Positions 3,923 through 49,902 are shown, numbered from the stretch's first letter. The stretch: DNA of 64,000 nucleotides from Spirochaetia bacterium (GCA_963662795.1 OY759746.1:1504001-1568000); one strand, 5' to 3'. The notes: generated by a model from the sequence alone, not told the origin. Program-made: numbers and translations.

Positions 3923-4627
3923 ATGAAACATATTAGTGTTCCGGCTTCGGTATTGCTGATCCTCCTGCTTTCCGCTTCTGCCGCATCGGGCCAGGGGCGT
4001 GATTATCCGGTATTTGACGCAGAATTCTGGTTTTTTAATGAACATGAACCCCTCTTTTCAGGTCCGGAACAGGATATCAGGAAACCCGGGACAGGGGATG
4101 ACACACGGAAAAAAATTGAGCAGCTTCTAGAAGAGGCATCGTTTGCTTTTTCGGGAATGATATACGGTTTCAATTTCAGCTATACTCCTTCGGATATTTC
4201 AAGAGGGGTCGATGAAATGTTTGAGTTTACACCTGCTGCCGTTATCCGGAAAGGGGATCCTGCCCTTACTGTAAAAAAAACCCGCAGGGATAAAGAGAAG
4301 ACTTATGTTTCAATTGAATACCGGTGTGATGAAAGACATGGAAACTGGATATCATACTGGAACAGCGCAGCTTTTCCTGTTACCGGCGGCAGCGGAAAGG
4401 GAATCCCTGATGCCGCTCCTGATGCGAGAAAAAACGCGGCAGCCGATGCGGTAAAGGAAGCTGTCAGGGAGTATATGAGGGGACGGGTTCATAATAAACC
4501 AAGAAGCATTTCAGGCAGCTGTGTTTTTTCAGAACCTCCCGTGATTACACATATGGCAGGACTTTATAACGCGTCAGTTAAAATCAGGCTTGAAGTTAAA
4601 GATGTGGAACGATACACTGTTTTTTAA
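3923..4627 (+). CDS. Exported hypothetical protein
   Basis: Signal peptide and 234-aa ORF co-directional with neighbours. Confidence 0.7.
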   Translation: MKHISVPASVLLILLLSASAASGQGRDYPVFDAEFWFFNEHEPLFSGPEQDIRKPGTGDDTRKKIEQLLEEASFAFSGMIYGFNFSYTPSDISRGVDEMFEFTPAAVIRKGDPALTVKKTRRDKEKTYVSIEYRCDERHGNWISYWNSAAFPVTGGSGKGIPDAAPDARKNAAADAVKEAVREYMRGRVHNKPRSISGSCVFSEPPVITHMAGLYNASVKIRLEVKDVERYTVF

Positions 4628-4649: not shown

Positions 4650-5510
4650 ATGGAAATAATACTTACCGGCACAGCCGCCAGTTTTAATATTCCGGCCTTC
4701 AGGTGCGTATGCGATGTATGCAGGCAGGCGCGCGAAAGCAGGGACAGGAAATTGAAAAGGAGAAACAGCTGTGCCGTAGTAACCGGAGATCATGGCGAGA
4801 AAATTCTGATAGACGCCCCGCCTCAGTTCATGAACCAGCTTGAGCTGTGCGGTATAGATGATACCGGGATTGATTCCCTTCTTCTGACTCACAGGCATGA
4901 AGACCATGTGCTTGGCCTTTTTTATATGCTTTCGCTTAAAAAATCCAAAGGCGGTATTGTAAGAACTCCTCTTAAAGTATACCTCGGCACTGATACCTAT
5001 AATTCAATTGCGGCAAATTTCAAGACACTTGCAAATGCTGAAAAAATGGAAGATCTTGACGGAATAATCGAGTTCCGGACAATAAATGAGCTTGAGGAAT
5101 TCCGTCCCGGAAGCATTAGTGTTACACCGCTTGAGACTAACCACCTTAACGCTAAATATTTATCCTCTACAGGGGAAAAGGAACAGTCGTTCGGTTTTCA
5201 TTTTTCTGAAAGGGGAAAGAACCTTTATTATCTTGTGGATGCAGCTAAAACACTGCCTGCAAAAACAATCGACTTCATGAAGAGAAGAAGACCTTCCTGC
5301 ATTATAGTTGACTGCACATATGAAAAATCAGAAGAGTCCTCCGGACACGGTGATATAGAAAGCGTAATGGCCCTTCGGGACCTTTTTCCCGAGGGGAGAA
5401 TGATTATCTCACACCTCGGGCATAAAAACCTCACCCCTGAAAGGCTTGCATCAGTTTTCGATAAAGAGGGTATTGAAGTCGGCTATGACGGACTTAAGGT
5501 TGTTGTCTGA
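4650..5510 (+). CDS. MBL-fold phosphodiesterase, PhnP-like
   Basis: LTGTA, CVCDVC zinc motif, THRHEDH, terminal SHLGH and GYDG. Confidence 0.85.
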   Translation: MEIILTGTAASFNIPAFRCVCDVCRQARESRDRKLKRRNSCAVVTGDHGEKILIDAPPQFMNQLELCGIDDTGIDSLLLTHRHEDHVLGLFYMLSLKKSKGGIVRTPLKVYLGTDTYNSIAANFKTLANAEKMEDLDGIIEFRTINELEEFRPGSISVTPLETNHLNAKYLSSTGEKEQSFGFHFSERGKNLYYLVDAAKTLPAKTIDFMKRRRPSCIIVDCTYEKSEESSGHGDIESVMALRDLFPEGRMIISHLGHKNLTPERLASVFDKEGIEVGYDGLKVVV

Positions 5511-5525
5511 TTAACCGGAAATGTT

Positions 5526-6269
5526 TCAATTGATGAGGCTGAAATGGTTAAGGATATCTTCAAGTCCTTCAGCAAGGCTTTTGTCGGAACAGTAGAGGGC
5601 CGCTTTCTTTACCGCGTCCCCGGCGTTTGACGGCGCTGCGCTGAATCCTGTTTTTACCATAAACGGGATATCAACTTCTGAATCACCCACACCCAGGATG
5701 GCCTCAAGGGGAACTCCGCTCTCTCTGGAGAGGAAGTCTATCCCTTTTCCCTTGTGAAAACCTTTAGGGATAATATTAATGCTGTCGGATGAATAGATTA
5801 TATCAAAACTGCCGCAGAGCTTTCCGCCGGCTTCAAGAATCAGCTCTTTGAGGCGCGGCGTAATGCTTTTATCCCTGCTGAAAAGGCTTAATGAGTAATC
5901 CTTTCCCCCCTGCATGATTGCCTGCCCTCTTTTGACAAGGGTTCTGTTTATTATTTTTTTAAGATTTTCAAGCTCATCAAGGCAAATGAGATCAGGGTGT
6001 GCCTTAAACACATAATCTTTGGGGTTGTATAACCCGGTACCGTGTTCAAACACGGCAGGGGCGAACCCGTGAATTGCCTGAAGAAGCGATTCAACATAGG
6101 TGCCGGGCCTCCCCGTAATTACAGTAACCGGCGGAAGGCTCCGGTCAGCTGATGCCTTGTCGTTCATCTCTGCAAGGAGCTTTACTATCCTGCCGGAGTA
6201 AAAAGCCCCCTTTGATTTTGATATTACGCCGTCGATATCAAGCGCGATCAGTTTTATTGTGTTTTCCAT
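5526..6269 (-). CDS. HAD-IIB hydrolase
   Basis: DIDGVI, ITGR, KGKG, VGDSEVDIP. Confidence 0.9.
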   Translation of the reverse strand: MENTIKLIALDIDGVISKSKGAFYSGRIVKLLAEMNDKASADRSLPPVTVITGRPGTYVESLLQAIHGFAPAVFEHGTGLYNPKDYVFKAHPDLICLDELENLKKIINRTLVKRGQAIMQGGKDYSLSLFSRDKSITPRLKELILEAGGKLCGSFDIIYSSDSINIIPKGFHKGKGIDFLSRESGVPLEAILGVGDSEVDIPFMVKTGFSAAPSNAGDAVKKAALYCSDKSLAEGLEDILNHFSLIN

Positions 6270-6327
6270 AAGTATCTGCCTTTATAATCCTCTGTCCGCT
6301 GACGCTGTATTACTGTTTTTGAGCCTT

Positions 6328-7191
6328 TTATGCGTCTTCATACACTTTTGCCAGTATATCGATACTTGCGCTGAAAGCTCCCAGGATATCCTGCTCCTTA
6401 AATCTTTCAGGGCTCAGTTCAAGGTTGTAAAGCCCCCTGTACCCGCCGGCCTTAAGCAGTTTTACATTATTTAATATCGGGATTGTGCCGCAGGTAAGCG
6501 GCCAGTGGGTCGCGTCTGTTCCCGGGTAAAGATCGTGAATATGGGTGTGTATTGCCCCTTTAATAAATTCCGGAACAGGATATTCCGCAATAATGCCCCT
6601 CCCGTAATTTGACCAGGCATGCCCCATGTCCCAGCATAATCCTATACTGCCGCTGTTTGTCTCTGCAGCTGCGGAAACAAGATCCTTATAATCAACCGCC
6701 GGATCCGGGAAACCCTTGTCCCTCTGATTTTCATAGGCGATAACAACCGGCAGTTTTTTATTTTCAATTTCCCTGCAGAGGTGGCTTAATATCGATACTG
6801 ATTTTTTATAATTCTCTTCTATGCTTTTCCCTCTGGTTTTAACAGGATGCATTGTTATTACAAGCGGTTTCCCGTCAGGCTGTGAGGCGTTTTCAAGATA
6901 TGCCGGGAGCCACGGCATGCTTTGCATGATATCGAGTGAATCGTAATTTTCTTCAACTTCTCCATGTACTGTTATCTGAAAACCGGCATCGCTTACTGTT
7001 TTAAAACCCTTCCCCGCATGGGCAAGTATTTCTTCCTGCCAGTGCCTGAATTCTATTGAGGAGACTCCCTTTTCTTTCAGTGACTCCAGAAAACTACCTA
7101 TGGTGTGATTCTGTTTCTTAATAGCTGTGCTTCCTTCATCTGTATACAATCCTGAGATGAAAGGCCATGGTAAAGATACTCCAATATTCAT
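6328..7191 (-). CDS. Sugar-phosphate isomerase/epimerase (xylose-isomerase-like TIM barrel)
   Basis: YEN, WDMGH, HTHIHD, HWP and LE motifs; start placed at ATG 7191 after a GGGG-type RBS. Confidence 0.8.
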   Translation of the reverse strand: MNIGVSLPWPFISGLYTDEGSTAIKKQNHTIGSFLESLKEKGVSSIEFRHWQEEILAHAGKGFKTVSDAGFQITVHGEVEENYDSLDIMQSMPWLPAYLENASQPDGKPLVITMHPVKTRGKSIEENYKKSVSILSHLCREIENKKLPVVIAYENQRDKGFPDPAVDYKDLVSAAAETNSGSIGLCWDMGHAWSNYGRGIIAEYPVPEFIKGAIHTHIHDLYPGTDATHWPLTCGTIPILNNVKLLKAGGYRGLYNLELSPERFKEQDILGAFSASIDILAKVYEDA

Positions 7192-7219
7192 ATATACCCC
7201 TTTCTTATATACTGATAAT

Positions 7220-7301
7220 ATGTAATAAATCTTGCAAAATGTCATCACTAAAAACCTGTAATGAAAATATAATTGCATTTATGACATAATAATTATATAA
7301 T
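7220..7301. promoter_or_regulatory. Divergent promoter region with two candidate RpiR operators
   Basis: 18-bp imperfect palindromes at 7220-7237 (ATGTAA-N6-TTGCAA) and 7261-7278 (ATGAAA-N6-TTGCAT); TTGCAT-17-TATAAT at 7273-7301. Confidence 0.55.
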
Positions 7302-7322
7302 TGGGAAAAAGGAGCATGTATC

Positions 7323-8231
7323 ATGAACTGCTATAAAAAGATTTTAAATACCTATGATTCTCTCCCGAAACAGCAGAAAAAGATCGCAGATTACATCGTG
7401 TTAAATATCAACGAAGTTGTGTTTTTTTCAATAACAATGCTCGCTTCAGAGCTCAGTGTAAGTGAAGCCACTATTGTCAGGTTTGCCCAGAATCTGGGTT
7501 ACAAGGGTTTTCCGGAACTTAAAAAAGACCTTGTCCATTATTATCAGAATTATCTGACTCCGGGCGAAAGGCTTAAAAATTCAATTGAGATCCTCGCGGG
7601 CGGGGCTTTCTCGTTTGAAAAGGCGATGAGACACGAACTTAAATGCCTTGAAGAGACAATTGATACTGTCAACGCCTCAATGTTTACAGATATTGTAGAT
7701 TCAATCTGTAAAAAGGATAAAATTTTTATTTTCGGGTTGGGTCTCAGCAACGAACCGATAGTAAATTATCTCTCATTCCGCCTTCGGAGATTCGGCCTTG
7801 ATGTCAGGGATGCGCCCCATTCGGGCAGCAATATGATGGAGTGCATTCCTTCAATCAGAAAAAATGATCTTGTAATAATCTATCAGTTCCTTAAAGCCTC
7901 CCCCGACTACTACAGCCTTACCAATGCACTCCAGAGCACCGGCGCTACCCTGTTTCTTATTACTGACAATAAAAAACTGGATCTTGTAAAAGCGGTCGAC
8001 AAGGTAATTACTGTTAACCGCGGTCCGGTTGAAAATTATCATACGCTTACTGTCCCCTTTACCGTTACAAGCGCGATTATTCTCGGTGTTGCTGAAAAAA
8101 TGGGTGATAAGGCTATTGATTTTACATCAAAGATAGGTCAGCTGCGGCGCGGATACTATCAAAGCATGCATGAGGCATTTCTGCCCTACAATAAGGGAGA
8201 AATTATAAAAGAAGATGTTAAGGAGGATTAA
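7323..8231 (+). CDS. MurR/RpiR family transcriptional regulator
   Basis: SEATIVRFAQNLGYKGFPELK helix-turn-helix plus C-terminal SIS domain. Confidence 0.95.
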   Translation: MNCYKKILNTYDSLPKQQKKIADYIVLNINEVVFFSITMLASELSVSEATIVRFAQNLGYKGFPELKKDLVHYYQNYLTPGERLKNSIEILAGGAFSFEKAMRHELKCLEETIDTVNASMFTDIVDSICKKDKIFIFGLGLSNEPIVNYLSFRLRRFGLDVRDAPHSGSNMMECIPSIRKNDLVIIYQFLKASPDYYSLTNALQSTGATLFLITDNKKLDLVKAVDKVITVNRGPVENYHTLTVPFTVTSAIILGVAEKMGDKAIDFTSKIGQLRRGYYQSMHEAFLPYNKGEIIKEDVKED

Positions 8232-9556
8232 TGGGTATTGTAAAGGCAAATGATATCAGGGGTATATATCCGGATGAGCTGAATGAAGAGACAGCCTGGA
8301 GGATCGGATTTTACCTTAAGGAAGTATTAGGCTGTAAAAAGATTCTCATAGGAAGAGACGGCCGGAGATCCTCAGATATTCTATTCAGTTCGCTTTGCGC
8401 CGGCATAACAGCGTCAGGTGCGGATGCTGTTTCAATCGGCAGGTGCGATACCCCTGCTGTATATTTTGCGACAGCCGGATATGGATTTGAAGGGAGTGTT
8501 ATGATAACGGCTTCCCATAATCCGCCGCACTACAACGGATTCAAGATTTCCGGAAAAGATTCAGTTCCGGTCGGGAAAGAAGACGGGCTTAACGTTCTGG
8601 GCGAATTGATCAGGGTAAAACCTGCTGCTTCTGCAGGAAAGGGGACAATCACAGAACTCGATATTACGGAAGATTATATAAATCATGCAGTCAGATTTGC
8701 CAAAGTGGAAAAACCCCTTAAGGTTGTTGTCGACTGCTCACAGGGTGCTGCCTGCTTTTTCGGGAAAAAAATACTCGCTGGTGTCGCATCTGAATTTATC
8801 TATATTTTTGATGAGCCGGACGGTTCTTTCTCTCTCCATGATCCTAATCCGCTTAAAAAAAGTGTCCATGAAATTGTTGCGCAGGCAGTAATCAGGGAAA
8901 ACGCCGATTTCGGAGTCTGTTTTGACGGAGATGCTGACAGGGCTGTTTTTTTTGATGAGAAAGGCCGTTTTATCTCGCCTGACATTATTACATCATTTTT
9001 TGCATCCTACTACTCGGGCGCGGAAAAAGGGTGGAAAGCTTTTTACGATGTCAGATCATCAAATTGTGTACGGGAATATATAGAAAAAAACGGCGGTGAG
9101 GCATCAGCCTGCAGGACCGGGCATTCCCATATAAAAAAAATAATGAAAGAAAGCAATGCGGTTTTTGCAGGAGAGCTTTCAGGCCATTATTATTTCAGGG
9201 ACAACTTTTTCTGCGATTCCGGGTTCATTGCTTTTCTTATAGTGCTTTCCGCCCTTTCCTCCCAGGAAAAAAAATTAAGCGCTCTTTTAAGCGATATAAA
9301 TCCTTACAGTTTTTCGGGTGAAATTAATTTTGAGGTAAGTGATATAGAGCAGGCAATAAAAAGGATCGGGGAGCACTACAGTCATGGGAAGATTGATACG
9401 ACAGAAGGCTTAAGAATTAATTTTGATGACTGGTGGTTTATTGTAAGACAGTCCACAGCAGAGCCTGTCCTGAGGCTTGTGGTTGAGGCGGACAATGATG
9501 AAATAATGAAAAAACATATAAGCGGTATAACTGATGTTATTAAAAACAGGGGATAA
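8231..9556 (+). CDS. Alpha-D-phosphohexomutase (PMM/PGM), paralog 1
   Basis: TASHNP, FDGDADR, GELSGH. Confidence 0.95.
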   Translation: MGIVKANDIRGIYPDELNEETAWRIGFYLKEVLGCKKILIGRDGRRSSDILFSSLCAGITASGADAVSIGRCDTPAVYFATAGYGFEGSVMITASHNPPHYNGFKISGKDSVPVGKEDGLNVLGELIRVKPAASAGKGTITELDITEDYINHAVRFAKVEKPLKVVVDCSQGAACFFGKKILAGVASEFIYIFDEPDGSFSLHDPNPLKKSVHEIVAQAVIRENADFGVCFDGDADRAVFFDEKGRFISPDIITSFFASYYSGAEKGWKAFYDVRSSNCVREYIEKNGGEASACRTGHSHIKKIMKESNAVFAGELSGHYYFRDNFFCDSGFIAFLIVLSALSSQEKKLSALLSDINPYSFSGEINFEVSDIEQAIKRIGEHYSHGKIDTTEGLRINFDDWWFIVRQSTAEPVLRLVVEADNDEIMKKHISGITDVIKNRG

Positions 9557-9560
9557 AAAA

Positions 9561-9667
9561 TTTAATATGATATGAAAGATTATTTTCATATCATATTAAA
9601 TATGAAAATAATTGTTTACAAAAGAAAATAATTGCTCTATAATTTACAAAAGAAAATTATTTTACAT
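9561..9667 (+). promoter_or_regulatory. Promoter with long palindrome and candidate RpiR operators
   Basis: Perfect 17-bp inverted repeat at 9561-9600 (core ATGAAA-N6-TTTCAT); TTTACA-17-TATAAT at 9615-9643; further site AAGAAA-N6-TTACAT at 9650-9667. Confidence 0.65.
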
Positions 9668-9783
9668 GATGGAAATAATCAGAAAGATTATTTGTATTTG
9701 GCAGTTTACTTTGTTGTCCGTTTTTTCTCTTTTATCAGCGGAGCCCCGGGGTAAAATGCAGTATTTCTGATAAACCATCAAAC

Positions 9784-9888
9784 ATGGCTGAAAACTTCAC
9801 AATTGTAAAACATCAGCCTGAAGAGGAATACCGGGAAGCTGTAAAAGTTGAAGAAACGGTGCTGTATATTCCACTTCATCATAGGTAA
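9784..9888 (+). CDS. Possible 34-aa small ORF in the operon leader
   Basis: MAENFTIVKHQPEEEYREAVKVEETVLYIPLHHR*; no clear RBS. Confidence 0.25.
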   Translation: MAENFTIVKHQPEEEYREAVKVEETVLYIPLHHR

Positions 9889-9906
9889 ATAAATTTTGGA
9901 GGAGCC

Positions 9907-10698
9907 GTGTCTCTTAAAGCTATTTTTTTTGATTTCGGAGGAACCCTGGATCTTTATCCGGATGTTCCCGAAAAAAGTGCTGCCGCTGCCGGGAAGATGC
10001 TTGATCTTCTGGAATCCGCGGGCCTTGATATGAAAAACAGATTCAGCAATGAAGAATTTTATCATTTTGTCAGGGATAAAAACAGGGAGTATAAAAAGTG
10101 GAAAGACGAAACCCTGATCGAACTTCCGGAGAAAAAAGTCTGGAAAGATTATATTCTCTGCAATGAGTCAAGGAAGGAGCTTCTGGACTGCAATACCGTA
10201 AGGGAACTTACATATCTGATGGACAATGGTTTTCATTCAAGACATGTGAGACCCGAGGCTAAGGAGGCCCTTGAAATCCTGAAACAATACGGACTTGTCA
10301 TGGGAATAATCAGCAATGTCCTAAGTTCCCTCCAGGTACCCAGAGATCTGGAACGTTATGGGTTAGCGGATTTTTTTAATCCTGTTGTAACATCAGCTGA
10401 TTTTGGCAGAGTAAAACCCCATTCTTCAATTTTTTCTCATGCAGTCGAAGCAGCCGGCCTTGAGGCCAGTGAATGTGTTTATGTCGGCAACAGTCCCGTG
10501 AGTGACATACAGGGAGCAAAGGATGCCGGTTTTAAGGCCGCTGTTTTGATCAATTATGAACATACTCCGCTGCGCGACAGAATGACACATGTGAAACCTG
10601 ATTATTATATTGAGAATCTGCTTGAGCTTCCCGCTATAATCGGAATGCTGCTGGAAGAAGGTTCTTTTATTAATCCGGTTTGCCGCGCGAAAAAATAA
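9907..10698 (+). CDS. HAD-IA hydrolase
   Basis: FDFGGTL, ISN, KPHSSIF, VGNSPVSDI; GTG start after GGAGG. Confidence 0.9.
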   Translation: MSLKAIFFDFGGTLDLYPDVPEKSAAAAGKMLDLLESAGLDMKNRFSNEEFYHFVRDKNREYKKWKDETLIELPEKKVWKDYILCNESRKELLDCNTVRELTYLMDNGFHSRHVRPEAKEALEILKQYGLVMGIISNVLSSLQVPRDLERYGLADFFNPVVTSADFGRVKPHSSIFSHAVEAAGLEASECVYVGNSPVSDIQGAKDAGFKAAVLINYEHTPLRDRMTHVKPDYYIENLLELPAIIGMLLEEGSFINPVCRAKK

Positions 10699-10728
10699 AG
10701 CGGTGAAATATTTTTTATGTAGTTAATT

Positions 10729-10765
10729 ATCCGGCTGAAATATCTTACTGCTGTTTCAGCCGGAT
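10729..10765 (+). other. Intergenic stem-loop
   Basis: ATCCGGCTGAAA...TTTCAGCCGGAT, 12-bp stem, no U-tract. Confidence 0.5.
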
Positions 10766-10811
10766 CTGATATTACAGTTAAATAGCCTGGGAAAGGAGTT
10801 GCTGAATAAAT

Positions 10812-11900
10812 ATGGCAAATAAAGTTAAACTGAAAATTGAAAACCTGTCCAAGATATGGGGGGATGTAAAGGCAATAGACAATATTTCAATGGAAATTGA
10901 GGAAGGAAGTTTTTTAACACTGCTCGGCCCTTCCGGCTGCGGTAAAACAACAACTTTAAGATCTATCGCCGGGCTTGAAGAGCCTACTAACGGTAAAATA
11001 TTTATTAATAATAAACTTGTTTATTCAAAAAAAGAAGAAATTGTTGTTGAGCCGGTAAAGAGGGATATTGGACTGATTTTTCAGTCTTATGCCCTTTGGC
11101 CGCACATGACAGTCTACGACAATATTGCTTTCAGCCTTTTATTGAAAAAAATTCCCAAAGACGAAGTAAGCAGAAGAGTCAACGCTATGCTCAGGAATGT
11201 TCATCTGGAAGAACTCGGCGGACGGTTCCCGAATGAACTTTCAGGAGGACAGCAGCAGAGGGTCGCTATAGCGAGAATGCTGATTACATCACCTGACATT
11301 TTTCTTATGGATGAGCCGCTTTCAAATCTTGACGCAAAGCTCAGAATGGGGATGAGGAGCGAATTAAAGAGACTCCACCAGGAGTCGGGCGCTACAACTG
11401 TATATGTTACACATGACCAGGAAGAGGCAATGACAATGTCTACCCATATCTGTGTAATGAAAGACGGTGTAATCAGGCAGCTGGATTCACCTGAGACGCT
11501 TTACAGAAAGCCCGCAGATCTTTTTGTGGCTGATTTTATCAGCAACCCCAAGATGAATTTTTATGATGCTGTTGCAGCACGGGAAAATGGAAAGACTTAT
11601 ATTTCTTTTGCGGGTTTCAGGATTAATGTTGATTCCGGTCTTATCGGAGAGAGAAAAGAAGTAAAAGTTGCGGTACGGCCTGAAGATTATATCCTGGACC
11701 CGAATGGTTCTGATTTCAGGGTTATAACACAGCTCCCGACAGGCCCTGATCAGATACTGAACCTTGAAAAGGATGGCCTTTCCACAACCATGGTTTCTCC
11801 GGATTACATTAAGGTTAATCCGGGTGAAAATATCAGAATCGGAATCAGGGAAGGGGTATACAACCTGTTTGATACTTCAACTGAAAAAAGAATTTATTAG
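10812..11900 (+). CDS. Carbohydrate ABC transporter ATPase (MalK/MsmX-like)
   Basis: GPSGCGKT, LSGGQQQR, MDEPLSNLD, YVTHD. Confidence 0.95.
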   Translation: MANKVKLKIENLSKIWGDVKAIDNISMEIEEGSFLTLLGPSGCGKTTTLRSIAGLEEPTNGKIFINNKLVYSKKEEIVVEPVKRDIGLIFQSYALWPHMTVYDNIAFSLLLKKIPKDEVSRRVNAMLRNVHLEELGGRFPNELSGGQQQRVAIARMLITSPDIFLMDEPLSNLDAKLRMGMRSELKRLHQESGATTVYVTHDQEEAMTMSTHICVMKDGVIRQLDSPETLYRKPADLFVADFISNPKMNFYDAVAARENGKTYISFAGFRINVDSGLIGERKEVKVAVRPEDYILDPNGSDFRVITQLPTGPDQILNLEKDGLSTTMVSPDYIKVNPGENIRIGIREGVYNLFDTSTEKRIY

Positions 11901-11984
11901 AGATATTTATTTATTCCAGGATAAATTTGAAAACAGCCGGCAGAATGTTTTGTATTGCCGCAAATAAATTTTCGGAGAAATATT

Positions 11985-13337
11985 TTGGGTGTTTTTAACG
12001 CAAATGACATCAGAGGGATCTTTGATAAAGAGTGGGACCTTACTACAGCATACAGAATCGGTTATTTTCTCCCTGAGATCCTTGACTCTGATATCATAGT
12101 TGTAGGCCGTGATGCGCGCCTTACCTCGGGACAAATCTTTGATCATCTCTGCAGCGGGATAAACGACGCGGGAGCTGATGTAATTGATATCGGCCTCTGC
12201 GATACTCCTGCCATGTATTTTACTGTCGGAATGTACGGGTTTGGAGGGGGAGCCATGATTACAGCTTCACACAATCCTGCTGAATATAATGGAATTAAAA
12301 TTGTAAGAAAAGGACCGACGGCCATAGGTTATAAAGACGGAATTGCTGAGCTGGAGAAAATGGTAAATGAGAGCAAGGAACGTGAACCGGATAAAAAAAA
12401 GAAGAAAGGCCGGATAGTCTTTAAAAATATTGAAAAAGACTATATCAGTTTTTATTCTGAATATACAAAAAATATAGGTAATCTTAAAATTGTTGTGGAC
12501 TGTTCAAACGGCAGCGCAGGTGTTTACGGAAGAAAAATTCTTGCAGGAAGCAATGTGAATGCTGTTTATATTAACGAAAAACCTGACGGACACTTCCCCG
12601 GACACGGTCCTGACCCCATGAAAAGTGAAAACCTTGCGCAGCTCTCTGAATCTGTAAAAAATGAGAAAGCGGATATCGGACTCTGTTTTGACGGAGATGC
12701 TGACCGTGTTGTTTTTATTGATGAGAACGGAAATCCGGTCTCTCCTGATATGATAATTGCGATTCTGGGTAAATATTTTTTAAAGAACGGAAAAGAGACA
12801 ATACTGTATGATCTAAGATGTTCAAACGGTATTGCCGAGTTTATTTCCGAATGCGGCGGAGAAGCTGTAATGTGTCCTGTCGGGCATGTATTTTTAAAGA
12901 AAAAATTAAAAGAAACGGGAAGCGCTTTCGGTGGTGAACTTGCCGGGCACTATTATTTCCGAGACTTCTTTTTCTGCGATTCAGGATGGATGACAGCGCT
13001 CCTTGTACTGAGCGTTCTTTCGAAGATTGACGGAGGGGAGAAGCTGTCAGACATGGTAAGCACCATTAGAAAATATTATTTTTCAGGAGAACTCAACTTT
13101 CCGGTAAACGGAGGGGACAGGGAAAGTCTTTATTCCATGCTTAAGGAAAAATATAAAGATGGAGTAAAAAATGAAATCGACGGCATACGAATTGATTATC
13201 CCGACTGGTGGTTTGTTGTAAGGAGATCTACCAATGAACCGCTTGTAAGACTGATTGTTGAAACAAAAACAGAAAATGAGCTCGAAAACAGAATTAAAGA
13301 GCTTGCCGGATTGATCCAGACTTCAGGCAGCAAATAG
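11985..13337 (+). CDS. Alpha-D-phosphohexomutase, paralog 2
   Basis: TASHNP, FDGDADR, GELAGH; TTG start at 11985 chosen from the GGAG RBS and alignment to paralog 1. Confidence 0.95.
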   Translation: MGVFNANDIRGIFDKEWDLTTAYRIGYFLPEILDSDIIVVGRDARLTSGQIFDHLCSGINDAGADVIDIGLCDTPAMYFTVGMYGFGGGAMITASHNPAEYNGIKIVRKGPTAIGYKDGIAELEKMVNESKEREPDKKKKKGRIVFKNIEKDYISFYSEYTKNIGNLKIVVDCSNGSAGVYGRKILAGSNVNAVYINEKPDGHFPGHGPDPMKSENLAQLSESVKNEKADIGLCFDGDADRVVFIDENGNPVSPDMIIAILGKYFLKNGKETILYDLRCSNGIAEFISECGGEAVMCPVGHVFLKKKLKETGSAFGGELAGHYYFRDFFFCDSGWMTALLVLSVLSKIDGGEKLSDMVSTIRKYYFSGELNFPVNGGDRESLYSMLKEKYKDGVKNEIDGIRIDYPDWWFVVRRSTNEPLVRLIVETKTENELENRIKELAGLIQTSGSK

Positions 13338-13353
13338 AAAAGGCAGGTACGGA

Positions 13354-14109
13354 ATGACTAACGTAAAAACTGATGTGTCGGAAATTGATTTTATTTTTTT
13401 TGACAAAGGCGGGACTTTAAGTTATCAGGAACCGCATGAAGACGGAGGGGTAGCAGCGGCGAAAGAGATAATGGATTTTCTCGGATATAAGGGCGACCCG
13501 TCAGAGTTCCGGAAGATGCTTAAGGAACGGGACAAAAAATACAAGAATTGGTCTCTTGAATCATGCTGTGAAGAAACAGTCGAGAATATGTGCGTGAAAT
13601 GGTATTTTTATGACGCACCGGATTTAACAAAAGCGGCTGATAACGCGGACAGGCTTATTAGAATGAATTCCTATGTCAAGGGCGAGAGAATAATGCATGC
13701 TGAGGCCGCCCCTCTTTTAAAAACACTTAGGGAAAGAGGTTACAGGGTGGGCCTAATAAGCAATACCGTAAGTCCTACAATGGTCCCTGAAGAGCTGAAG
13801 GAAGCGGGTATTTTTGATGGCCTTGAAGTTGTTATATTGTCATCTGTCGAAAGACTGCGCAAACCGGACCCGGCGATTTTTCTTCTTGCGTGCGAGAGGG
13901 CAGGTGTTGCCCCTGAAAAATGTGCCTACATCGGAGATGCCCCGAACCGGGATGTCGAAGGACCGAGAAGGGCGGGTTTTGCATCTGTAGTAATAATAAG
14001 CGGCAAAAACTATAATCCTGAATCTGATAAAGGGGCTCTGAGAGAGCCGGACGTTGTAGTTGCAAATCTTGCCGGTCTTTATGAAGTTTTCCCGGAAAAA
14101 AGGGGTTAG
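13354..14109 (+). CDS. HAD-IA hydrolase
   Basis: FDKGGTL, ISN, KPDPAIF, IGDAPNRD. Confidence 0.9.
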   Translation: MTNVKTDVSEIDFIFFDKGGTLSYQEPHEDGGVAAAKEIMDFLGYKGDPSEFRKMLKERDKKYKNWSLESCCEETVENMCVKWYFYDAPDLTKAADNADRLIRMNSYVKGERIMHAEAAPLLKTLRERGYRVGLISNTVSPTMVPEELKEAGIFDGLEVVILSSVERLRKPDPAIFLLACERAGVAPEKCAYIGDAPNRDVEGPRRAGFASVVIISGKNYNPESDKGALREPDVVVANLAGLYEVFPEKRG

Positions 14110-14115
14110 CCAGAT

Positions 14116-15174
14116 ATGAGAGACGGAGGATTGGAAATGAAGAGCAGAAGAATAACAGACTGCCGCTTTACCGGAGCGTGGATGACAGATATTGATGACA
14201 CAATAATCAGGTCAGGTGAAATGCCGGATGAAAACTGGGTTAAATGGATCTCTTCCAGAATTGAAAAATTAAACAGCCATAACATTTTGTGGATACCTAT
14301 GAGCGGTGTAGCCCTTGTAAAACTGGGACCCAGGATCCTTTACCGGCTGCCTGAAAACATACTTGATTCAGTCCTTTATTACGGCGGAGACGGAAGCCAG
14401 AAATACTATTTTGATAAGGCAGCCGGAAAATGGGCGGAAGACCTCGACTACAAAAGGGTGTTCACGGATGAACAGGCCCTTGCAGTAATAGGAAAGGATG
14501 AGTTTCTGAAAACAGTTCATGATGAAGGGCGGTATGAAAAGGCGGCCTCTGCACTTGCTGAAGGAAGATTTAAATCAGAAAACGGAATACTTGACACAAT
14601 GAAAAAGATGCTTTCCGATAACGGCTATGATCCGGACCTTTCTGAGACATACTTCCGCGGAGGCTCTGTGAGCTGGATGATGCTGGGAGATATATCTGCC
14701 GAACCCTATAAAACAGAGAAAGCGGCAGAGGTCAGAAGGAAACTTATTGAATACGCGGAAAAGACCCTTGAGGAAGAAGGTTTCCTTAAGCGTTTTGGAA
14801 AAGAGGGGATAAATATTCCATTTCACGGGGCCCGCGGGATAAAATTTGTTATGATGGGCAACGACAAGGAAAGAGGAACGCGTGACCTGGTGGAAAAGGA
14901 AGGGATAAAGCCTGAAAACATTGTATTTGCGGGAAACGAACTTTTCGCTGGCGGAAACGATAACATGATCAGGAAAGTAAAGGGTGTGACCATATTGTCT
15001 GTAGGTGAAAAGACAGATCCGGGAGAGCATGTGATAGCTGCGGGGGAGGGGATTGAAGCGAACAACCTGTGGCTTGATGAGATATGCGGTTCACTTGACA
15101 GGGGTGAGAAATGGGAAGATATTTTTGCAGCCATAAGAATCCAGGGAAAAAAATGGATAGGAAATAAATTATGA
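14116..15174 (+). CDS. HAD-IIB protein resembling eukaryotic-type phosphomannomutase
   Basis: DIDDT motif I, MSG, DKERG, FAGNELFAGGND motif IV. Confidence 0.6.
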   Translation: MRDGGLEMKSRRITDCRFTGAWMTDIDDTIIRSGEMPDENWVKWISSRIEKLNSHNILWIPMSGVALVKLGPRILYRLPENILDSVLYYGGDGSQKYYFDKAAGKWAEDLDYKRVFTDEQALAVIGKDEFLKTVHDEGRYEKAASALAEGRFKSENGILDTMKKMLSDNGYDPDLSETYFRGGSVSWMMLGDISAEPYKTEKAAEVRRKLIEYAEKTLEEEGFLKRFGKEGINIPFHGARGIKFVMMGNDKERGTRDLVEKEGIKPENIVFAGNELFAGGNDNMIRKVKGVTILSVGEKTDPGEHVIAAGEGIEANNLWLDEICGSLDRGEKWEDIFAAIRIQGKKWIGNKL

Positions 15175-16529
15175 ATGAAGCGTTTAAATCAGGCTGTGTA
15201 AGAGGTCCTTACCCCCGGCAGTGGGATGCGGTTACTGCCTACAGGATAGGCAGGTATCTTCCTTCATTGCTTGATACGGAAAGTATTGTTATAGGACGTG
15301 ACGCAAGGCTTTCCTCTGTTGAAATTTTTGAACATCTGGCAAAAGGGATATCAGAAAGCGGAGCCGATGTATTTGATATCGGCCTTGTCGATACCCCCGC
15401 CCTTTATTTTGCAAATGTAAAATATGATTTCAGCGCATCGCTGATGATAACCGCTTCGCATAACCCCGCGGGAGACAACGGGCTTAAAATACACCGCGGC
15501 AACGCAGTCCCGGTAGACGGCAAAACCGGGCTTAAAGAGCTTGAAGCTCTCATAGAAACTGCTCCGCCTGAGCCGGCTGGAAAAAAGGGGAAAATAGAAT
15601 ATCTTGATATAGAAAAGGATTATTTGTCCCTTCTCGAAACATTCACGCACGGGATAAAAAAACTCAAAGTTGTACTTGACTGTTCTTCCGGAAGCGCCGG
15701 AAGGTTTATACATAAGATCTTAAAGATGATTCCCCAGGGCGAGTTTATAATTTTAAACGATAAGCCGGATGGCAGTTTTCCTGCACACGGACCTAATCCG
15801 CTTAAAGAATCAAGCCAGATTCAGATCAGGGAAAAAATAGCAGAGGCTAATGCTGATTTCGGCATAATTTTTGACGGAGACTGCGACAGGACAATATTTA
15901 TTACAGGGAAAGGCGATATGGTTATGCCTGACCTTATCCTGCCGTATCTGGCAAGGTATTATTTTATCCACTTCCCGGAAAAAAAGAAAGGGGACGACGG
16001 GATAATATATGACCTCAGGTGTTCAAGCAATGTCCGTGAATATGTGGAAAAGCTGGGCGGAAAGGCGCATCAGTGTAAAACCGGTCATACCGCGATACAG
16101 TCTGCCATTCACGGTAATAAAGGGCTTATAGGGGCAGAGCTTGCGGGGCACTACTATTTTCGGGATTTTTACGGACAGGACTCAGCTTATATCGCAATGC
16201 TTATGTCTTTCGCAATTGCATCAAACAGCACCCGGAAATTCTCTGAAGAGATCAGGGAAATTGAGAAATATGCTTTTTCCGGTGAAATAAACTTCAGGGT
16301 AAAAAACAGTATTGGAGTTCTGGATGAACTTCAAAAAGTTTATACCGCTATCGGCGCTAAAATTGACAGGAGCGAAGGAGTCAAAGCTGTTTTGGGCAAC
16401 TGGTGGTTCCTTGCGAGGGTATCAAATACCGAGCCAGTGCTGAGGCTTGTTGTTGAAGCAGATGACAGGGATACAATGAAGAAAAAAGTTGAAGAGCTGA
16501 CAAAAATAATTACAGGAGAACCCGGGTAA
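15171..16529 (+). CDS. Alpha-D-phosphohexomutase, paralog 3
   Basis: TASHNP, FDGDCDR, AELAGH, RVSNTEP. Confidence 0.95.
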   Translation: MNEAFKSGCVRGPYPRQWDAVTAYRIGRYLPSLLDTESIVIGRDARLSSVEIFEHLAKGISESGADVFDIGLVDTPALYFANVKYDFSASLMITASHNPAGDNGLKIHRGNAVPVDGKTGLKELEALIETAPPEPAGKKGKIEYLDIEKDYLSLLETFTHGIKKLKVVLDCSSGSAGRFIHKILKMIPQGEFIILNDKPDGSFPAHGPNPLKESSQIQIREKIAEANADFGIIFDGDCDRTIFITGKGDMVMPDLILPYLARYYFIHFPEKKKGDDGIIYDLRCSSNVREYVEKLGGKAHQCKTGHTAIQSAIHGNKGLIGAELAGHYYFRDFYGQDSAYIAMLMSFAIASNSTRKFSEEIREIEKYAFSGEINFRVKNSIGVLDELQKVYTAIGAKIDRSEGVKAVLGNWWFLARVSNTEPVLRLVVEADDRDTMKKKVEELTKIITGEPG

Positions 16530-16581
16530 AAACCGCCTTACGGCTGCACCCCGGGCTCCATTAAATAATCAGGAGACAGTC

Positions 16582-17463
16582 ATGAAAAAAGAATACAACA
16601 TAGTATCAATCGGTCATGTGACAAATGATGTGAGAAACATGATGGGAACAAAAACACCGTTTGTCGGGGGGGCGGCTTTCTTTTCTCCCCATGCGGCTAA
16701 AAGGTCAGGGGCGGATGTTCTTGTAATTACCAAGATGGCCCAGAAGGACAGGCATACACTTTCCACCCTTACGGATGCCGGTATTGATGTTCTTCCTCTT
16801 CCTTCAAAAGCAACTACGTCAATTGAGAACATATTTGTCACGGAGGACCAGGACAACAGGAAGCTTAAGCTTCTGTCCCTTGCAGACCCGTTCAGCGCGG
16901 ATGAGGTCCCGTCAGATATAAAAGCAGAGGTTTTTCATATCGCCGCCCTTTTCAGCGGAGAAGTTCCGGATGAAATGATTAAAAGCCTTTCAAAGAGGGG
17001 TAAAGTCGCCCTTGACCTTCAGGCTGCGCTCCGCTACATAGGGGAGGAAGATGTTTATTTCGAGGACTGGAAGGACAAGGAAAAATATCTTCCCTACGCT
17101 TATTATATCAAGGCAGACTCTCTTGAAATAAAGGTAATAACCGGGACCGATGACAGGGAAAAGGCGGCTAAGATACTTTACGGATGGGGCGGTAAAGAGA
17201 TAGTCATAACAAGAAAAGATGAAGTTCTCGTTTATGACGGTAAAAATTTCTATAGAGCGCCGTTTAACGCGAAAAACCTTGACGGCAGGGCAGGAAGAGG
17301 CGACACCTGTTTTCTCTCATACATTACAAGAAGATTCACACACACACCTGATGAGGCAACTCACTACGCGGCAGCCCTTACAAGCATCAAGATGGAGAAA
17401 TCAGCGCCGTTTTCAGGAACTGTCCAGGATGTTCTTGACAGGATGAAGACTCAAGTCTACTGA
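16582..17463 (+). CDS. PfkB family carbohydrate kinase
   Basis: IGHVTND, GGAAFF, DGRAGRGDTC. Confidence 0.9.
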   Translation: MKKEYNIVSIGHVTNDVRNMMGTKTPFVGGAAFFSPHAAKRSGADVLVITKMAQKDRHTLSTLTDAGIDVLPLPSKATTSIENIFVTEDQDNRKLKLLSLADPFSADEVPSDIKAEVFHIAALFSGEVPDEMIKSLSKRGKVALDLQAALRYIGEEDVYFEDWKDKEKYLPYAYYIKADSLEIKVITGTDDREKAAKILYGWGGKEIVITRKDEVLVYDGKNFYRAPFNAKNLDGRAGRGDTCFLSYITRRFTHTPDEATHYAAALTSIKMEKSAPFSGTVQDVLDRMKTQVY

Positions 17464-17657: not shown

Positions 17658-18587
17658 ATGGAGCTTGATGCGGGGAACAGGATTATTGATAACATGTCGA
17701 AAGTTATTGTCGGTAAAAAGGACGCGCTTGAAATGGTTGTTGTCGCGCTTCTTGCCGGAGGGCATATCCTGCTAGAGGATGTTCCGGGTGTCGGAAAAAC
17801 CGTTATAGGCAAATGCCTGGCAAGAAGCATAAACGGCACATTTACGCGGATACAGTTTACCCCGGATGTCCTTCCCGGGGATGTGACAGGCTTTAATGTC
17901 TATGATAATAAAACCGGCCAGTTTAATTTTCAGCCGGGCCCTGTTATGACGAATATCCTCCTCGCTGATGAAATAAACAGGGCAATCCCGAGAACTCAGT
18001 CAAGCCTCCTTGAAAGTATGGAAGAGTGTCAGGTTACGGTAGATTCAAAAACCTGGATCCTTCCGGTCCCTTTCATGGTGATCGCGACACAGAATCCGAT
18101 AGAACTTGAGGGGACTTTTCCCCTTCCTGAAGCTCAGCTTGACAGGTTCCTGCTTAAAATATCACTGGGTTATCCTGACCCTGAAGAGGAAAATATAATC
18201 CTTCAGAGGTTTCAGAAGGATGACCCTCTTCCCTCCCTGACTCCTGTTTTTACCCCTGATGAGATTATGGTTCTGCAGGGAATGAGAAAAGAGGTGATGG
18301 TATCGGAACCTGTGCGCAGGTATATTACTGAAATAACCTCAGCGACAAGGCGCAGCAGAAAGATTAAATACGGGTCCAGCCCGAGGGGTTCGCTGGGGCT
18401 GATGAGGGCCGCGCAGAGTCTTGCCGTCCTTGATAAACGGGACTACGTTATACCTGATGATGTCAAAAAAGTTTCTGTTCCTGTTCTTGCCCACAGGATA
18501 ATCCTTGAGGAAGCGGTTATACTCGGCGGTGAGAAGCCTGAGGATATAATTAACGGAATAGTCAAAAAAACTGAGGTTCCGGTTTGA
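17658..18587 (+). CDS. MoxR family AAA ATPase
   Basis: LEDVPGVGKT, RIQFTPD, LADEINR, ATQNP, EAQLDRF. Confidence 0.97.
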   Translation: MELDAGNRIIDNMSKVIVGKKDALEMVVVALLAGGHILLEDVPGVGKTVIGKCLARSINGTFTRIQFTPDVLPGDVTGFNVYDNKTGQFNFQPGPVMTNILLADEINRAIPRTQSSLLESMEECQVTVDSKTWILPVPFMVIATQNPIELEGTFPLPEAQLDRFLLKISLGYPDPEEENIILQRFQKDDPLPSLTPVFTPDEIMVLQGMRKEVMVSEPVRRYITEITSATRRSRKIKYGSSPRGSLGLMRAAQSLAVLDKRDYVIPDDVKKVSVPVLAHRIILEEAVILGGEKPEDIINGIVKKTEVPV

Positions 18588-18602
18588 AGCAGGATCTTTG
18601 AG

Positions 18603-42969: not shown

Positions 42970-43749
42970 TCAGTTTGCTATAATCAGCTTAATATTAAGA
43001 TCCTCTATCGTTTCCCTGTATTCCTGCGATATCTTATTATCAGTTATAATTGTGTCAATATTTGAAAGATCTCCAAAATGCGAAGGACTTACCATTCCGA
43101 ATTTGCTCGAATCTGCCACAACAATGACCTGCTTGCTGGACCGCATTAAAATATTTTTTATTGTTACGTGAAAGTTATGGTAGCAGGTCAATCCCAGTTT
43201 TTTTTCAATACCTGCAGCCGAAATAAAAACTTTATCTGTTCGTATTTTACTTAGAAATGAAATTCCCTCTTCCGAATAGAAAACATCTGAATCACGGTCA
43301 AGATAACCGCCTGGGAGGATTATATTGGCATTTTTCTTGTTATAAAGTTCGCATGCGCATTCAAAGGTAACACAAATGGCGCTAATTCTTTTATCCCCGG
43401 GAATATATTTTGCAATTAATGGTACTGTTGTGCCAATATCAAATCCTATCGTTTCATTTTCATTAATCATGGAAGCTGCGCAATAGCCGATGGCGCTTTT
43501 TAAATTTACATTTTTAGACATTTCATTACCGATCAGGTATTTATTGCTTTCAGTAATATTAAATGATGATATTGGTATAGCTCCGCCATGAATTCTCTTA
43601 ATCAGGCCATTATCTTCAAGATTATCCAGATATCTCCTTACAGTCATTTCGGACGTCAGAAGTTTGTCAGAGAGTGTTTTAACGCTAACTTCACCTTCTC
43701 TCTGGAGCATTTCAACAATCTGTTTCATACGTTTATCTTTTTTTGACAT
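42970..43749 (-). CDS. DeoR/GlpR family regulator
   Basis: SEMTVRRYL, RIHGGA, DIGTT, ADSSKFG. Confidence 0.95.
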   Translation of the reverse strand: MSKKDKRMKQIVEMLQREGEVSVKTLSDKLLTSEMTVRRYLDNLEDNGLIKRIHGGAIPISSFNITESNKYLIGNEMSKNVNLKSAIGYCAASMINENETIGFDIGTTVPLIAKYIPGDKRISAICVTFECACELYNKKNANIILPGGYLDRDSDVFYSEEGISFLSKIRTDKVFISAAGIEKKLGLTCYHNFHVTIKNILMRSSKQVIVVADSSKFGMVSPSHFGDLSNIDTIITDNKISQEYRETIEDLNIKLIIAN

Positions 43750-45682: not shown

Positions 45683-45690
45683 AAAAGGAG

Positions 45691-47244: not shown

Positions 47245-47268
47245 ATATATTTATATCAGGAGGATGCT

Positions 47269-49868: not shown

Positions 49869-49875
49869 ATAAAAA

Positions 49876-49902
49876 CAGGGCCGTCTTTAATGGGCGACCC
49901 TG
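49876..49902 (+). other. Stem-loop after the binding-protein gene
   Basis: CAGGGCCGTCT-TTAAT-GGGCGACCCTG. Confidence 0.55.

Follow-up and report, generated by a model that had tools for sequence, protein, structure and literature searches.

Within a 64,000-nucleotide stretch of a Spirochaetia bacterium genome (GCA_963662795.1, OY759746.1:1504001-1568000; here called the window), 12 intact genes between positions 4650 and 17463 encode an RpiR-family regulator, three alpha-D-phosphohexomutases (PGM1, PGM2, and PGM3), four HAD-fold proteins, an ABC ATPase, a PhnP-like metallohydrolase of the metallo-beta-lactamase (MBL) fold, a TIM barrel, and a PfkB-type kinase. Comparison with related genomes showed that this cluster is a reduced derivative of a larger locus, of which the window keeps the cytoplasmic enzymes and the regulator and lacks the uptake and phytase genes. 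On balance, we lean toward the view that the locus is a route for inositol-phosphate use, in which the cluster would carry out the cytoplasmic processing of imported inositol phosphates.

All coordinates below are positions in the window unless another contig is named. Genomes carry G numbers, with G000 the window's own genome (a single contig of 3.93 Mb, 98% complete), and loci or contigs carry L numbers. The cluster extends from the MBL gene to the kinase gene in open reading frame (ORF) calls combined with Pfam and NCBIfam scans. Each gene listed in an initial annotation of the window was an intact ORF, confirming that the observed grouping is real. Named Spirochaetia metagenome-assembled genomes (MAGs) supplied the close relatives of the window's proteins. 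An archaeal origin, raised by archaeal-type models among the best NCBIfam matches, was rejected in view of these relatives and because no S3Ae ribosomal protein was found.

A reduced copy of a larger locus

In the congener G002, whose proteins are 80 to 93% identical to those of the window and whose locus has the same flanking genes (NlpC-FtsJ-polyprenyl synthase-rhomboid), the gene order is RpiR-PGM1-SBP-HAD-IA-phytase-permease-ATPase-NHL-PGM2, SBP being a solute-binding protein. Four of these genes, first found in the sister genus, are present in G002, G005, G011, and G008 and absent from the window's locus: the SBP, a PF02333 beta-propeller phytase (E = 1.9e-45), a fused two-domain ABC permease, and an NHL-repeat propeller. 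In G002 they fall exactly at the 350-, 113-, and 54-nucleotide gaps of the window, and an SBP gene of 395 codons stands in G002, G011, and G005 where the window has the intergenic gap 9557-9906. The order in G011 equals that in G002, as does that in G005 apart from PGM1, and the RpiR, PGM, HAD-IA, 352-residue protein, and ATPase genes of the window retain the order and orthology of these three genomes. The complete locus consists of RpiR, PGM1, SBP, HAD-IA, secreted beta-propeller phytase, fused anion-type permease, ATPase, NHL-propeller lipoprotein, PGM2, HAD-IA, a HAD-type mutase-like protein, and PGM3, to which the MBL protein, the TIM barrel, a HAD-IIB protein, and, in the window's family, a putatively pyrophosphate-dependent kinase may be added.

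The SBP, phytase, and NHL protein carry a signal peptide or lipobox, and the enzymes do not. Since the secreted and lipobox-bearing proteins are those that were lost, the window holds the cytoplasmic half of the locus. The permease is nearest to anion-type models (PhnU2, ModB, and CysT), and an atlas search with the SBP returned generic "ABC substrate-binding protein" clusters only. The UgpC/MalK-like ATPase of the window (10812-11900, plus strand; ABC_tran, 6.2e-35) scores 341 bits with the UgpC model against a cutoff of 432 and is 76 to 84% identical to the ATPase encoded 3' of the fused permease in G005, G011, and G002; nothing else survives of the complete importer that this genome has lost.

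Loss of the SBP, phytase, permease, and NHL genes from three places, in a genome that is 98% complete on a single contig and has no phytase anywhere, would fit a decaying leftover without present function, an explanation that we regard as very improbable. All 12 remaining genes are intact and under purifying selection, with dN/dS ratios against G002 of 0.04 to 0.13 (0.11 for the ATPase), no higher than those of the flanking housekeeping genes (0.06 to 0.14 for four genes upstream and 0.05 to 0.24 downstream). Against the closer contig L112 the ratios were 0.08 to 0.12, and the reduced form appears to have persisted in the lineage, as L112 seems to share the ATPase-PGM2 junction (15 nucleotides of evidence). 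The low dN/dS ratios and the apparently shared junction together indicate that the reduced locus is maintained rather than decaying.

Elsewhere in G000 there are six paralogous importers, each with an SBP, a fused two-domain permease, and an ATPase (L103 to L108; contig C1 at approximately 0.07, 0.56, 1.23, 2.60, 2.77, and 3.16 Mb). Three have an FDxGGT-type HAD-IA gene as neighbor, one an RpiR gene, and one a gene for a calcineurin-like phosphoesterase, and they look like a family of organophosphate uptake modules.

Distribution and conserved gene order

Further copies were sought with two independent anchors, the 352-residue protein in metagenome contigs and the Pfam Phytase family in 401 sampled genomes of the class. 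The first anchor yielded 24 metagenome loci. Three of them (L120, L124, and L132) share the order SBP-phytase-permease-ATPase-NHL-PGM-352aa-HAD-IA at 42 to 52% identity; a second PGM follows in L120, with the MBL gene adjoining, and in L124, with the TIM barrel gene adjoining, while L132 ends at the HAD-IA gene and L121 represents the downstream half, from ATPase to MBL. The phytase anchor marked 18 places in 17 genomes. All four places in the window's family lie within the locus. Outside the family, 9 of 14 (phytase 41 to 58% identical) adjoin a permease, ATPase, or SBP gene, and PGM paralogs are also present in seven of the seven among those nine with more than approximately 5.5 kb of contig; the other five (29 to 33% identity) are without any locus genes. 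Among 400 genomes sampled evenly across the phylum, only G000 matched the 352-residue family; this search was uninformative, relatives having been found through the metagenome contigs and the phytase anchor.

The distribution of the locus is patchy, and the grouping of its genes is more than chance. The initial annotation had staked its proposal of a dedicated phosphosugar or cyclitol pathway on synteny elsewhere, and such synteny was found: the order is kept in three relatives of two genera, in other Spirochaetia families, and in metagenome contigs.

Locus composition also varies by lineage, with the kinase, MBL, TIM barrel, and PGM1 genes coming and going. This variability, the many phosphoesterase families packed together, and the six paralogous importers of G000 (three with a HAD-IA and one with a metallophosphoesterase neighbor) could suggest a phosphate-scavenging island without a single pathway, in which the phytase, importer, and phosphatases would serve phosphorus acquisition and the coregulated PGMs and kinase would use the released phosphate or inositol indirectly. 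We consider this quite unlikely. The order PGM-352aa-HAD-IA-PGM shows tight conservation, and its genes overlap, nearly abut, or occur fused, which argues for a shared substrate chain; moreover, the regulator is an RpiR-type phosphosugar sensor rather than a Pho-type system, and the PGM clades are specific to the locus.

Three phosphohexomutases outside the ordinary clade

PGM1 (8231-9556), PGM2 (11955-13337), and PGM3 (15171-16529), all on the plus strand, belong to the PMM/PGM (phosphomannomutase/phosphoglucomutase) subgroup and are 40 to 45% identical in pairwise comparison, PGM3 being the most divergent. Each chain has approximately 450 residues and all four PGM_PMM Pfam domains (I to IV) above cutoff. 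The TASHNP and DGDxDR motifs reported in the initial annotation are found in each, as part of a full set of phosphoserine (TASHNP), metal [FDGD(A/C)DR], sugar [(G/A)EL(S/A)GHYYFRD], and phosphate (R-x-S-x-x-EP) loops. PGM2 probably starts at a TTG codon at 11985, which is preceded by a conserved GGAG, and the sequence upstream is conserved in L112 and G002. None of the three reached the NCBIfam cutoff of a named enzyme (ManB/PGM, CpsG, PgmG, GlmM, or archaeal GlmM); the best curated scores were 311 to 359 bits with PRK09542 (cutoff, 618) and 281 to 355 bits with TIGR03990 (cutoff, 439). A Pfam scan of 23 proteins between 746 and 24367 likewise bore out the reported absence of nucleotidyltransferases and glycosyltransferases, neither of which was matched.

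In a tree of 38 sequences from the fetched loci (quick IQ-TREE run with SH-aLRT support, rooted on two outgroup sequences), the single-copy PGMs of nine other spirochaete families formed one clade (support, 98), and none of the nine has locus genes nearby. The locus PGMs fell outside this ordinary clade in separate clades, namely PGM1 (96), which takes in L030, PGM2 (99), a "distant first PGM" (100), and PGM3 (97), which joins the window's family with the second PGM of the distant loci L120, L121, and L124; joint grouping of all locus clades had a support of only 80. Substrate loops have changed in a clade-specific manner. The N-terminal motif is KAYDIRG in the ordinary clade, NDIRG in PGM1 and PGM2, and SGC(V/I)RG in PGM3, and the phosphate loop is RxSNTEP in the ordinary clade, RxSTAEP in PGM1, and RxSTNEP in PGM2; PGM3 has the motifs SGCVRG, xDNG, FDGDCDR, and AELAGH. 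The sugar loop is the same across the locus clades and the ordinary clade. The initial annotation had named grouping of the paralogs with ordinary Pgm, ManB, or GlmM as counterevidence to its proposed pathway; in this tree they did not group with the ordinary spirochaete clade.

No PGM of the type with approximately 450 residues was found in the two genera of the family that have small genomes (14 genomes), and the locus type is for this reason accessory rather than core housekeeping. A housekeeping GlmM or PGM role for PGM1 to PGM3 was considered and set aside on the same ground and in view of two other PGM-family genes in G000. These encode proteins of 583 and 609 residues (L001, 2700354-2702105; L005, 3871474-3873303), neither of which reaches a curated GlmM or PGM cutoff.

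A TM0415-like kinase and inositol metabolism

The kinase (16582-17463, plus strand), a PfkB/TM0415-like member of the ribokinase family, aligns over its full length with TM0415 of Thermotoga maritima (1VK4/5YSP; E = 1e-47). TM0415 is reported to phosphorylate myo-inositol with pyrophosphate (PPi) and not with ATP or ADP; K171, F221, R229, R232, and M266 are proposed donor determinants, and D11, N78, Q141, and R145 bind inositol (Nagata 2018, PMC5931981). All five donor residues are kept in the window kinase (K177, F228, R236, R239, and M271), as are the four acceptor residues (D16, N83, Q147, and R151) and the catalytic aspartate (D241 for D234), with S89 replaced by Leu. The donor and acceptor signature residues are invariant in 20 subfamily members, and the donor signature is also kept in two further kinase paralogs of G000. 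On the strength of these residues the kinase is predicted to use PPi as donor, and myo-inositol, or else a related polyol or sugar acid, is its probable acceptor. The acceptor range of PPi-dependent kinases is wider than inositol, since a PPi-using 2-keto-3-deoxygluconate (KDG) kinase has been described in a Verrucomicrobium (PMC12632266).

At 79 loci around kinase relatives, the commonest neighbors were the ATPase (25), the fused permease (21), DeoR/LacI regulators, GDPD (9), and Gfo/Idh/MocA (7 + 4). G000 itself has a second kinase locus (L022, C1:1668000-1687999), in which a paralog 45% identical to the window kinase is accompanied by genes for a TIM barrel, ROK, LacI, an SBP, two permeases, an ATPase, an HD-domain protein, and GDPD; further on lie another TIM barrel, an MBL paralog (37% identical to the window MBL), an ATPase, a permease, and an SBP. 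The pairing of kinase and GDPD at L022 suggests glycerophosphoinositol-type substrates. The third paralog (L023, C1:2719000-2738999) is 38% identical, keeps the PPi signature with Met at the N78 equivalent, and adjoins a Cof-type HAD-IIB gene and a MarR gene, with a Lactamase_B_3 MBL, RidA, and an EAL-GGDEF protein encoded nearby.

Approximately 100 kb downstream of the cluster, G000 carries an iol operon (L153, C1:1621500-1627500) with LacI, an iolB-like gene (below cutoff), iolD (931 bits), iolE (424 bits), and iolG (484 bits), the last three each above cutoff, followed by an acylating aldehyde dehydrogenase gene. Neither iolC nor iolJ occurs in the annotated stretch around this operon, and no inositol-phosphate synthase (MIPS) was found in G000. 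The genome also encodes PPi-dependent phosphofructokinase (PPi-PFK; 814 bits), pyruvate phosphate dikinase (PPDK; 1346 bits), and a membrane pyrophosphatase (H+-PPase; 885 bits). iolD occurs in 9 of 13 locus-bearing genomes and in 87 of the 401 genomes of the class sample, which includes those 13 and G000 and in which relatives are not independent, and in G541 a LacI-iolD-iolE-iolG set stands 3.4 kb from the locus. The cyclitol substrate guessed at in the initial annotation thus has independent support in the TM0415-like kinase, the phytase of the relatives' locus, and the iolD, iolE, and iolG genes of the genome; the mutase loops, which are of the canonical hexose-phosphate type, count against it.

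HAD-fold proteins and a fourth mutase-like enzyme

The HAD-IIB protein (5526-6269, minus strand; Hydrolase_3, 2.3e-13) is a predicted phosphatase that is syntenic in G002, G005, G011, and G008; it scores 41.9 bits with the NCBIfam model HAD-SF-IIB (cutoff, 41.8) and stays below cutoff with archaeal-type phosphoglycolate phosphatase models. Its DxD motif (LDIDGV), like that of the 352-residue protein (TDIDDT), has both the Asp nucleophile and the Asp+2 of motif I, DxDx(T/V). The two HAD-IA proteins, both encoded on the plus strand, differ in this respect. HAD-IA 1 (9907-10698; Hydrolase, 1.1e-21), which is TIGR02253/CTE7-like (132 bits; cutoff, 170), has FDFGGTL as motif I, and HAD-IA 2 (13354-14109; Hydrolase, 1.2e-23) has FDKGGTL. 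Glycine stands at Asp+2 in 38 of 38 HAD-IA 1 and 19 of 19 HAD-IA 2 homologs of the fetched loci, the FDxGGT motif being found in 37 of the former and FDVGNTL in the remaining one. The solved relatives found for these proteins are only uncharacterized Pyrococcus HADs and designed enzymes built on those. A paralog 62% identical to HAD-IA 2 adjoins a paralogous importer in G000.

The 352-residue HAD-IIB protein (14116-15174, plus strand), whose stop codon overlaps the start of PGM3, has no Pfam hit and is assigned to the HAD fold by its motif and structure model. Its family comprises 86 cluster representatives with the invariant motifs TDIDDT, K, and GND, and nine of nine matches with an organism name are spirochaete MAGs. 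The AlphaFold2 (AF2) model (pLDDT, 91.6) has 4BND as its top Foldseek match (2.4e-13), followed by eukaryotic PMMs. Judged by this model, the protein is the fourth HAD of the cluster and a putative fourth mutase-like enzyme. PMM1, one of the eukaryotic enzymes, is a glucose-1,6-bisphosphatase. HAD-IA 2 is fused to the 352-residue family in proteins of 565 to 615 residues and in L118:7485-9185, and this HAD-IA-HAD-IIB fusion, like that of the TIM barrel with the MBL protein, is a Rosetta-stone link between locus products. On another metagenome contig (L130:41-4147), the family forms the C-terminal part of a 1368-residue ORF with P-loop kinase-like domains, adjoined by a PPDK-like protein of 1589 residues.

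Putative phosphodiesterases, regulator, and the intergenic gap

The MBL protein (4650-5510, plus strand; Lactamase_B_2, 7.8e-19) is of the PhnP/PqqB type, with a visible HxHxDH motif and N-terminal CxCxxC and no signal peptide. It is syntenic in G002, G005, G011, and G008 and in L120, L121, L118, and L156, and it is likely a phosphodiesterase. Its best NCBIfam model is PhnP (TIGR03307), with 95.4 bits below a cutoff of 272.

The xylose-isomerase-like TIM barrel (ORF 6328-7278, minus strand, probable start Met at 7191; AP_endonuc_2, 1.1e-14) belongs to a family with 364 representatives at E of ≤1e-3, and all six long forms tested are fusions with an MBL protein. Its AF2 model (pLDDT, 97.4) has fold matches tied at Z of 21 to 23 among ketose epimerases, IolI, IolE, and TM0416 (Foldseek and VIA-align), and the family's invariant E154, D188, H217, and E258 would fit an E-D-H-E metal site, with five more His/Glu residues invariant. 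A trinuclear site of the kind seen in endonuclease IV is a further conceivable arrangement. The CbiR phosphodiesterase model NF041277 is matched weakly by 40 of 50 relatives (best, 1.4e-10; the 105-bit cutoff was not applied per member), and the window protein itself has no hit at E of ≤0.01. Of the "TIM-barrel isomerase" in the initial annotation, the barrel stands and the isomerase label is uncertain, as the fold matches are tied and the relatives lean to a phosphodiesterase model; a CbiR-like phosphodiesterase working with the MBL protein and a sugar isomerase or epimerase are equally possible.

The RpiR gene (7323-8231, plus strand; HTH_6, 3.3e-22; phosphosugar-binding SIS domain, 4.4e-08) is divergent from the TIM barrel and HAD-IIB pair, and its orthologs head the locus in G002, G005, G011, L156, L160, L162, and L163. 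Regulators of the RpiR/SIS family sense sugar phosphates.

In the gap left by the SBP gene (9557-9906), a perfect 18-nucleotide AT-rich inverted repeat (9560-9577 and 9584-9601) directly follows the PGM1 stop codon, and the best promoter-like site of the region lies at 9615-9643 (11 of 12 matches in a sigma-70-like scan). Two copies of TTTACAAAAGAAAAT come after the inverted repeat and overlap the promoter match (within 9560-9662). The region may serve the genes downstream as an operator or as an internal promoter. A remnant of the SBP gene was also considered here, given a signal-peptide-like ORF of 34 codons, and was rejected (best tblastn E, 0.10).

Proposed function and its main alternative

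Phytate makes up a large share of the organic phosphorus in soils, sediments, manure, and guts, and beta-propeller phytases are known to stop at InsP3 (inositol trisphosphate). In the route that we favor, the phytase, perhaps together with the NHL propeller, would trim calcium phytate outside the cytoplasm to lower inositol phosphates, which the SBP, permease, and ATPase would import. Inside the cell, the HAD phosphatases would remove phosphates, the four mutase-type enzymes would shift phosphates to removable positions, and the MBL and TIM barrel proteins would open phosphates in diester or cyclic form. The TM0415-like kinase would link inositol and inositol monophosphate to the PPi/phosphate (Pi) pool of a PPi-based glycolysis, RpiR would sense a phosphorylated intermediate, and free inositol would enter the IolG/IolE/IolD pathway encoded approximately 100 kb away. 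In G000, the enzymes would have to be fed by one of the six paralogous importers or from internal pools.

A bolder version, which we hold to be unlikely though not fanciful, is that the locus PMM/PGMs and the HAD-type mutase are inositol-phosphate mutases that walk the phosphates left by the phytase (e.g., between para-related ring positions) to the position used by the TM0415-like enzyme. That enzyme, running in reverse, would convert InsP and Pi to inositol and PPi, and phytate phosphoesters would be harvested as PPi for glycolysis. If true, the phosphohexomutase superfamily would gain a new activity, and the cell would have a new way to conserve energy from organophosphate, as opposed to wasteful hydrolysis.

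Several points weigh against an inositol-phosphate route. No enzyme activity is known for any locus protein. PGM1 to PGM3 keep the sugar loop GEL(A/S)GHYYFRD of the ordinary clade and a normal phosphate loop; such loops would suit hexose phosphates no less than inositol phosphates, ordinary sugar phosphates are possible substrates, and no description of an alpha-D-phosphohexomutase acting on inositol phosphates was found in the literature. The HAD-IA pair, of the HAD fold by Pfam, is without the Asp+2 general acid, and the two proteins may not be ordinary, classical phosphomonoesterases. The Km of TM0415 for myo-inositol is reported as 12 mM, a value that led the authors to question inositol as the true acceptor (PMC5931981). 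Distant versions of the locus lack the kinase over the length of contig available, and a kinase placed beside phosphatases would seem to drive a futile cycle, unless it worked in reverse or on a different position. Finally, iolD was not found in 4 of the 13 locus-bearing genomes (completeness, 68 to 94%), and G000 has lost both the importer of the locus and, genome wide, any PF02333 phytase.

The main weakness lies in the PGMs, which appear entirely able to handle ordinary hexose phosphates; this makes a sugar-phosphate or phosphoglycan function a serious rival, to which we assign a real but minority chance. The locus would then import and process phosphorylated sugars or phosphodiester-linked glycan fragments (teichoic-acid-like or phosphomannan-like): the MBL and TIM barrel proteins would cut diesters, the three PGMs and the HAD-type mutase would interconvert the 1- and 6-phosphates of glucose, mannose, and glucosamine or N-acetylglucosamine for glycolysis, the HAD-IA proteins with Gly at Asp+2 would hydrolyze sugar 1-phosphates, and the propeller "phytase" would only release phosphate or attack the polymer. 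This would accord with the canonical hexose-type loops, with the closest solved structures of the PGMs (X. citri PGM and P. aeruginosa PMM/PGM; E = 7e-75 to 3e-53), with a 352-residue fold like those of enzymes acting on glucose or mannose phosphates, with a weak match of HAD-IA 2 to the glucose-1-phosphatase YihX (3e-6 in PDB, 3.1e-06 in NCBIfam), with the sugar-phosphate sensing of RpiR/SIS regulators, and with the lean of TIM barrel relatives toward a phosphodiesterase model and their fusions with MBL proteins. Yet the locus has no glycoside hydrolase, phosphorylase, or sugar kinase of the usual type, and its only extracytoplasmic enzyme with a family name is the beta-propeller phytase, of a family noted for strict phytate specificity. 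The kinase added in the window's family is of the inositol type, and the iol genes share genomes with the locus, adjoining it in one of them. Three paralogs and a fourth mutase type also seem excessive where one ordinary PMM/PGM suffices elsewhere in the class.

Should the inositol-phosphate route be correct, the locus would offer a physiological context for the TM0415 kinase family and candidates for the enzymatic preparation of defined inositol phosphate isomers. The window shows in addition that the outer half of the locus can be lost while the cytoplasmic enzymes stay under selection.

Neighboring features

Directly upstream of the MBL gene lies a gene for a secreted TP_0983-family protein (3923-4627, plus strand; signal peptide visible, no Pfam match for the local copy). 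Its atlas clusters are labeled TP_0983 (score, 0.97), it is syntenic in relatives, and the family is broad in spirochaetes, extending beyond the locus; it is probably not part of the system. Directly after the kinase, as in G002, G011, and G008, come genes for MoxR AAA ATPase, DUF58, and DUF4129 proteins (17658-21247), a common trio that is probably unrelated to the cluster. A further carbohydrate locus of the window (42970-55125) encodes DeoR, an aldehyde dehydrogenase, an FGGY kinase, ribose-5-phosphate isomerase A, an SBP, two permeases, two ATPases, and a short-chain dehydrogenase/reductase (SDR), and GC content drops to 0.35 at 42 to 44 kb.

Comparison with known systems

The window PGMs share the four-domain architecture and all four loops of the PMM/PGM subgroup, as represented by P. 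aeruginosa AlgC (1K35/1P5D) and X. citri XanA (5BMN/6NN2). They differ from it in that three paralogs share one locus, of a nonpolysaccharide kind, and branch separately from the ordinary spirochaete enzyme, with NDIRG or SGC(V/I)RG in place of KAYDIRG and with altered phosphate-loop residues. For the 352-residue protein, the best folds are those of the L. lactis HAD-type alpha-phosphoglucomutase (4BND) and eukaryotic PMM1/PMM2, with which it shares the DxDxT nucleophile motif and a C2-type cap; in contrast to these, it is approximately 100 residues longer, 12 to 18% identical, and a member of a spirochaete-restricted family without a Pfam model that is sometimes fused to a HAD-IA domain.

The window kinase matches TM0415 in its five donor residues, the catalytic Asp of GXGD, and all four acceptor residues, and is set apart by Leu at S89, by the presence of three paralogs in the genome, and by a context of phosphomutases and HADs, whereas TM0415 belongs to the oxidative inositol operon TM0411-TM0416. 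The TIM barrel resembles CbiR (cobamide remodeling) and the ketose 3-epimerases, IolI, and IolE in its fold and in invariant Glu/Asp/His residues that would fit as metal ligands, but it reaches no curated model, has extra invariant His residues, and is fused to an MBL protein in some organisms. PhnP, which opens a ribose cyclic phosphate, is the 5-phosphoribosyl 1,2-cyclic phosphate phosphodiesterase of the C-P lyase pathway. The window MBL protein aligns with the PhnP model from end to end, its residues 1-282 against positions 1-247 of the 249 in the model, and shares the N-terminal Cys cluster and HxHxDH; unlike a PhnP proper, it scores 95 bits against the cutoff of 272, and no C-P lyase (phn) gene was present among the window ORFs scanned with Pfam.

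With the beta-propeller phytase systems (Bacillus PhyC type) and microbial phytate degradation as described so far (e.g., in Mitsuokella jalaludinii, PMC7618129), the locus has in common a secreted PF02333 phytase, in relatives, and an inositol operon in the genome; the window's own copy departs from them in lacking the phytase. The absence of a described pathway with this gene set, as stated in the initial annotation, held up in full-text literature searches, in which subscription journals were outside coverage: we found no description of an importer and four mutase-type enzymes beside a phytase, nor any link of a beta-propeller phytase with PMM/PGM genes, an inositol-phosphate mutase, or an InsP ABC importer, and the available part of a review (PMC12482443) has zero occurrences each of "mutase," "ABC transporter," and "kinase." The combination in one locus of phytase, importer, mutases, HAD proteins, and, in one family, the predicted PPi-dependent kinase suggests that inositol phosphates are taken up after partial dephosphorylation and processed within the cell, a biochemistry for which we found no earlier description. 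To our knowledge, the known microbial phytate routes end with extracellular dephosphorylation, followed by inositol catabolism.

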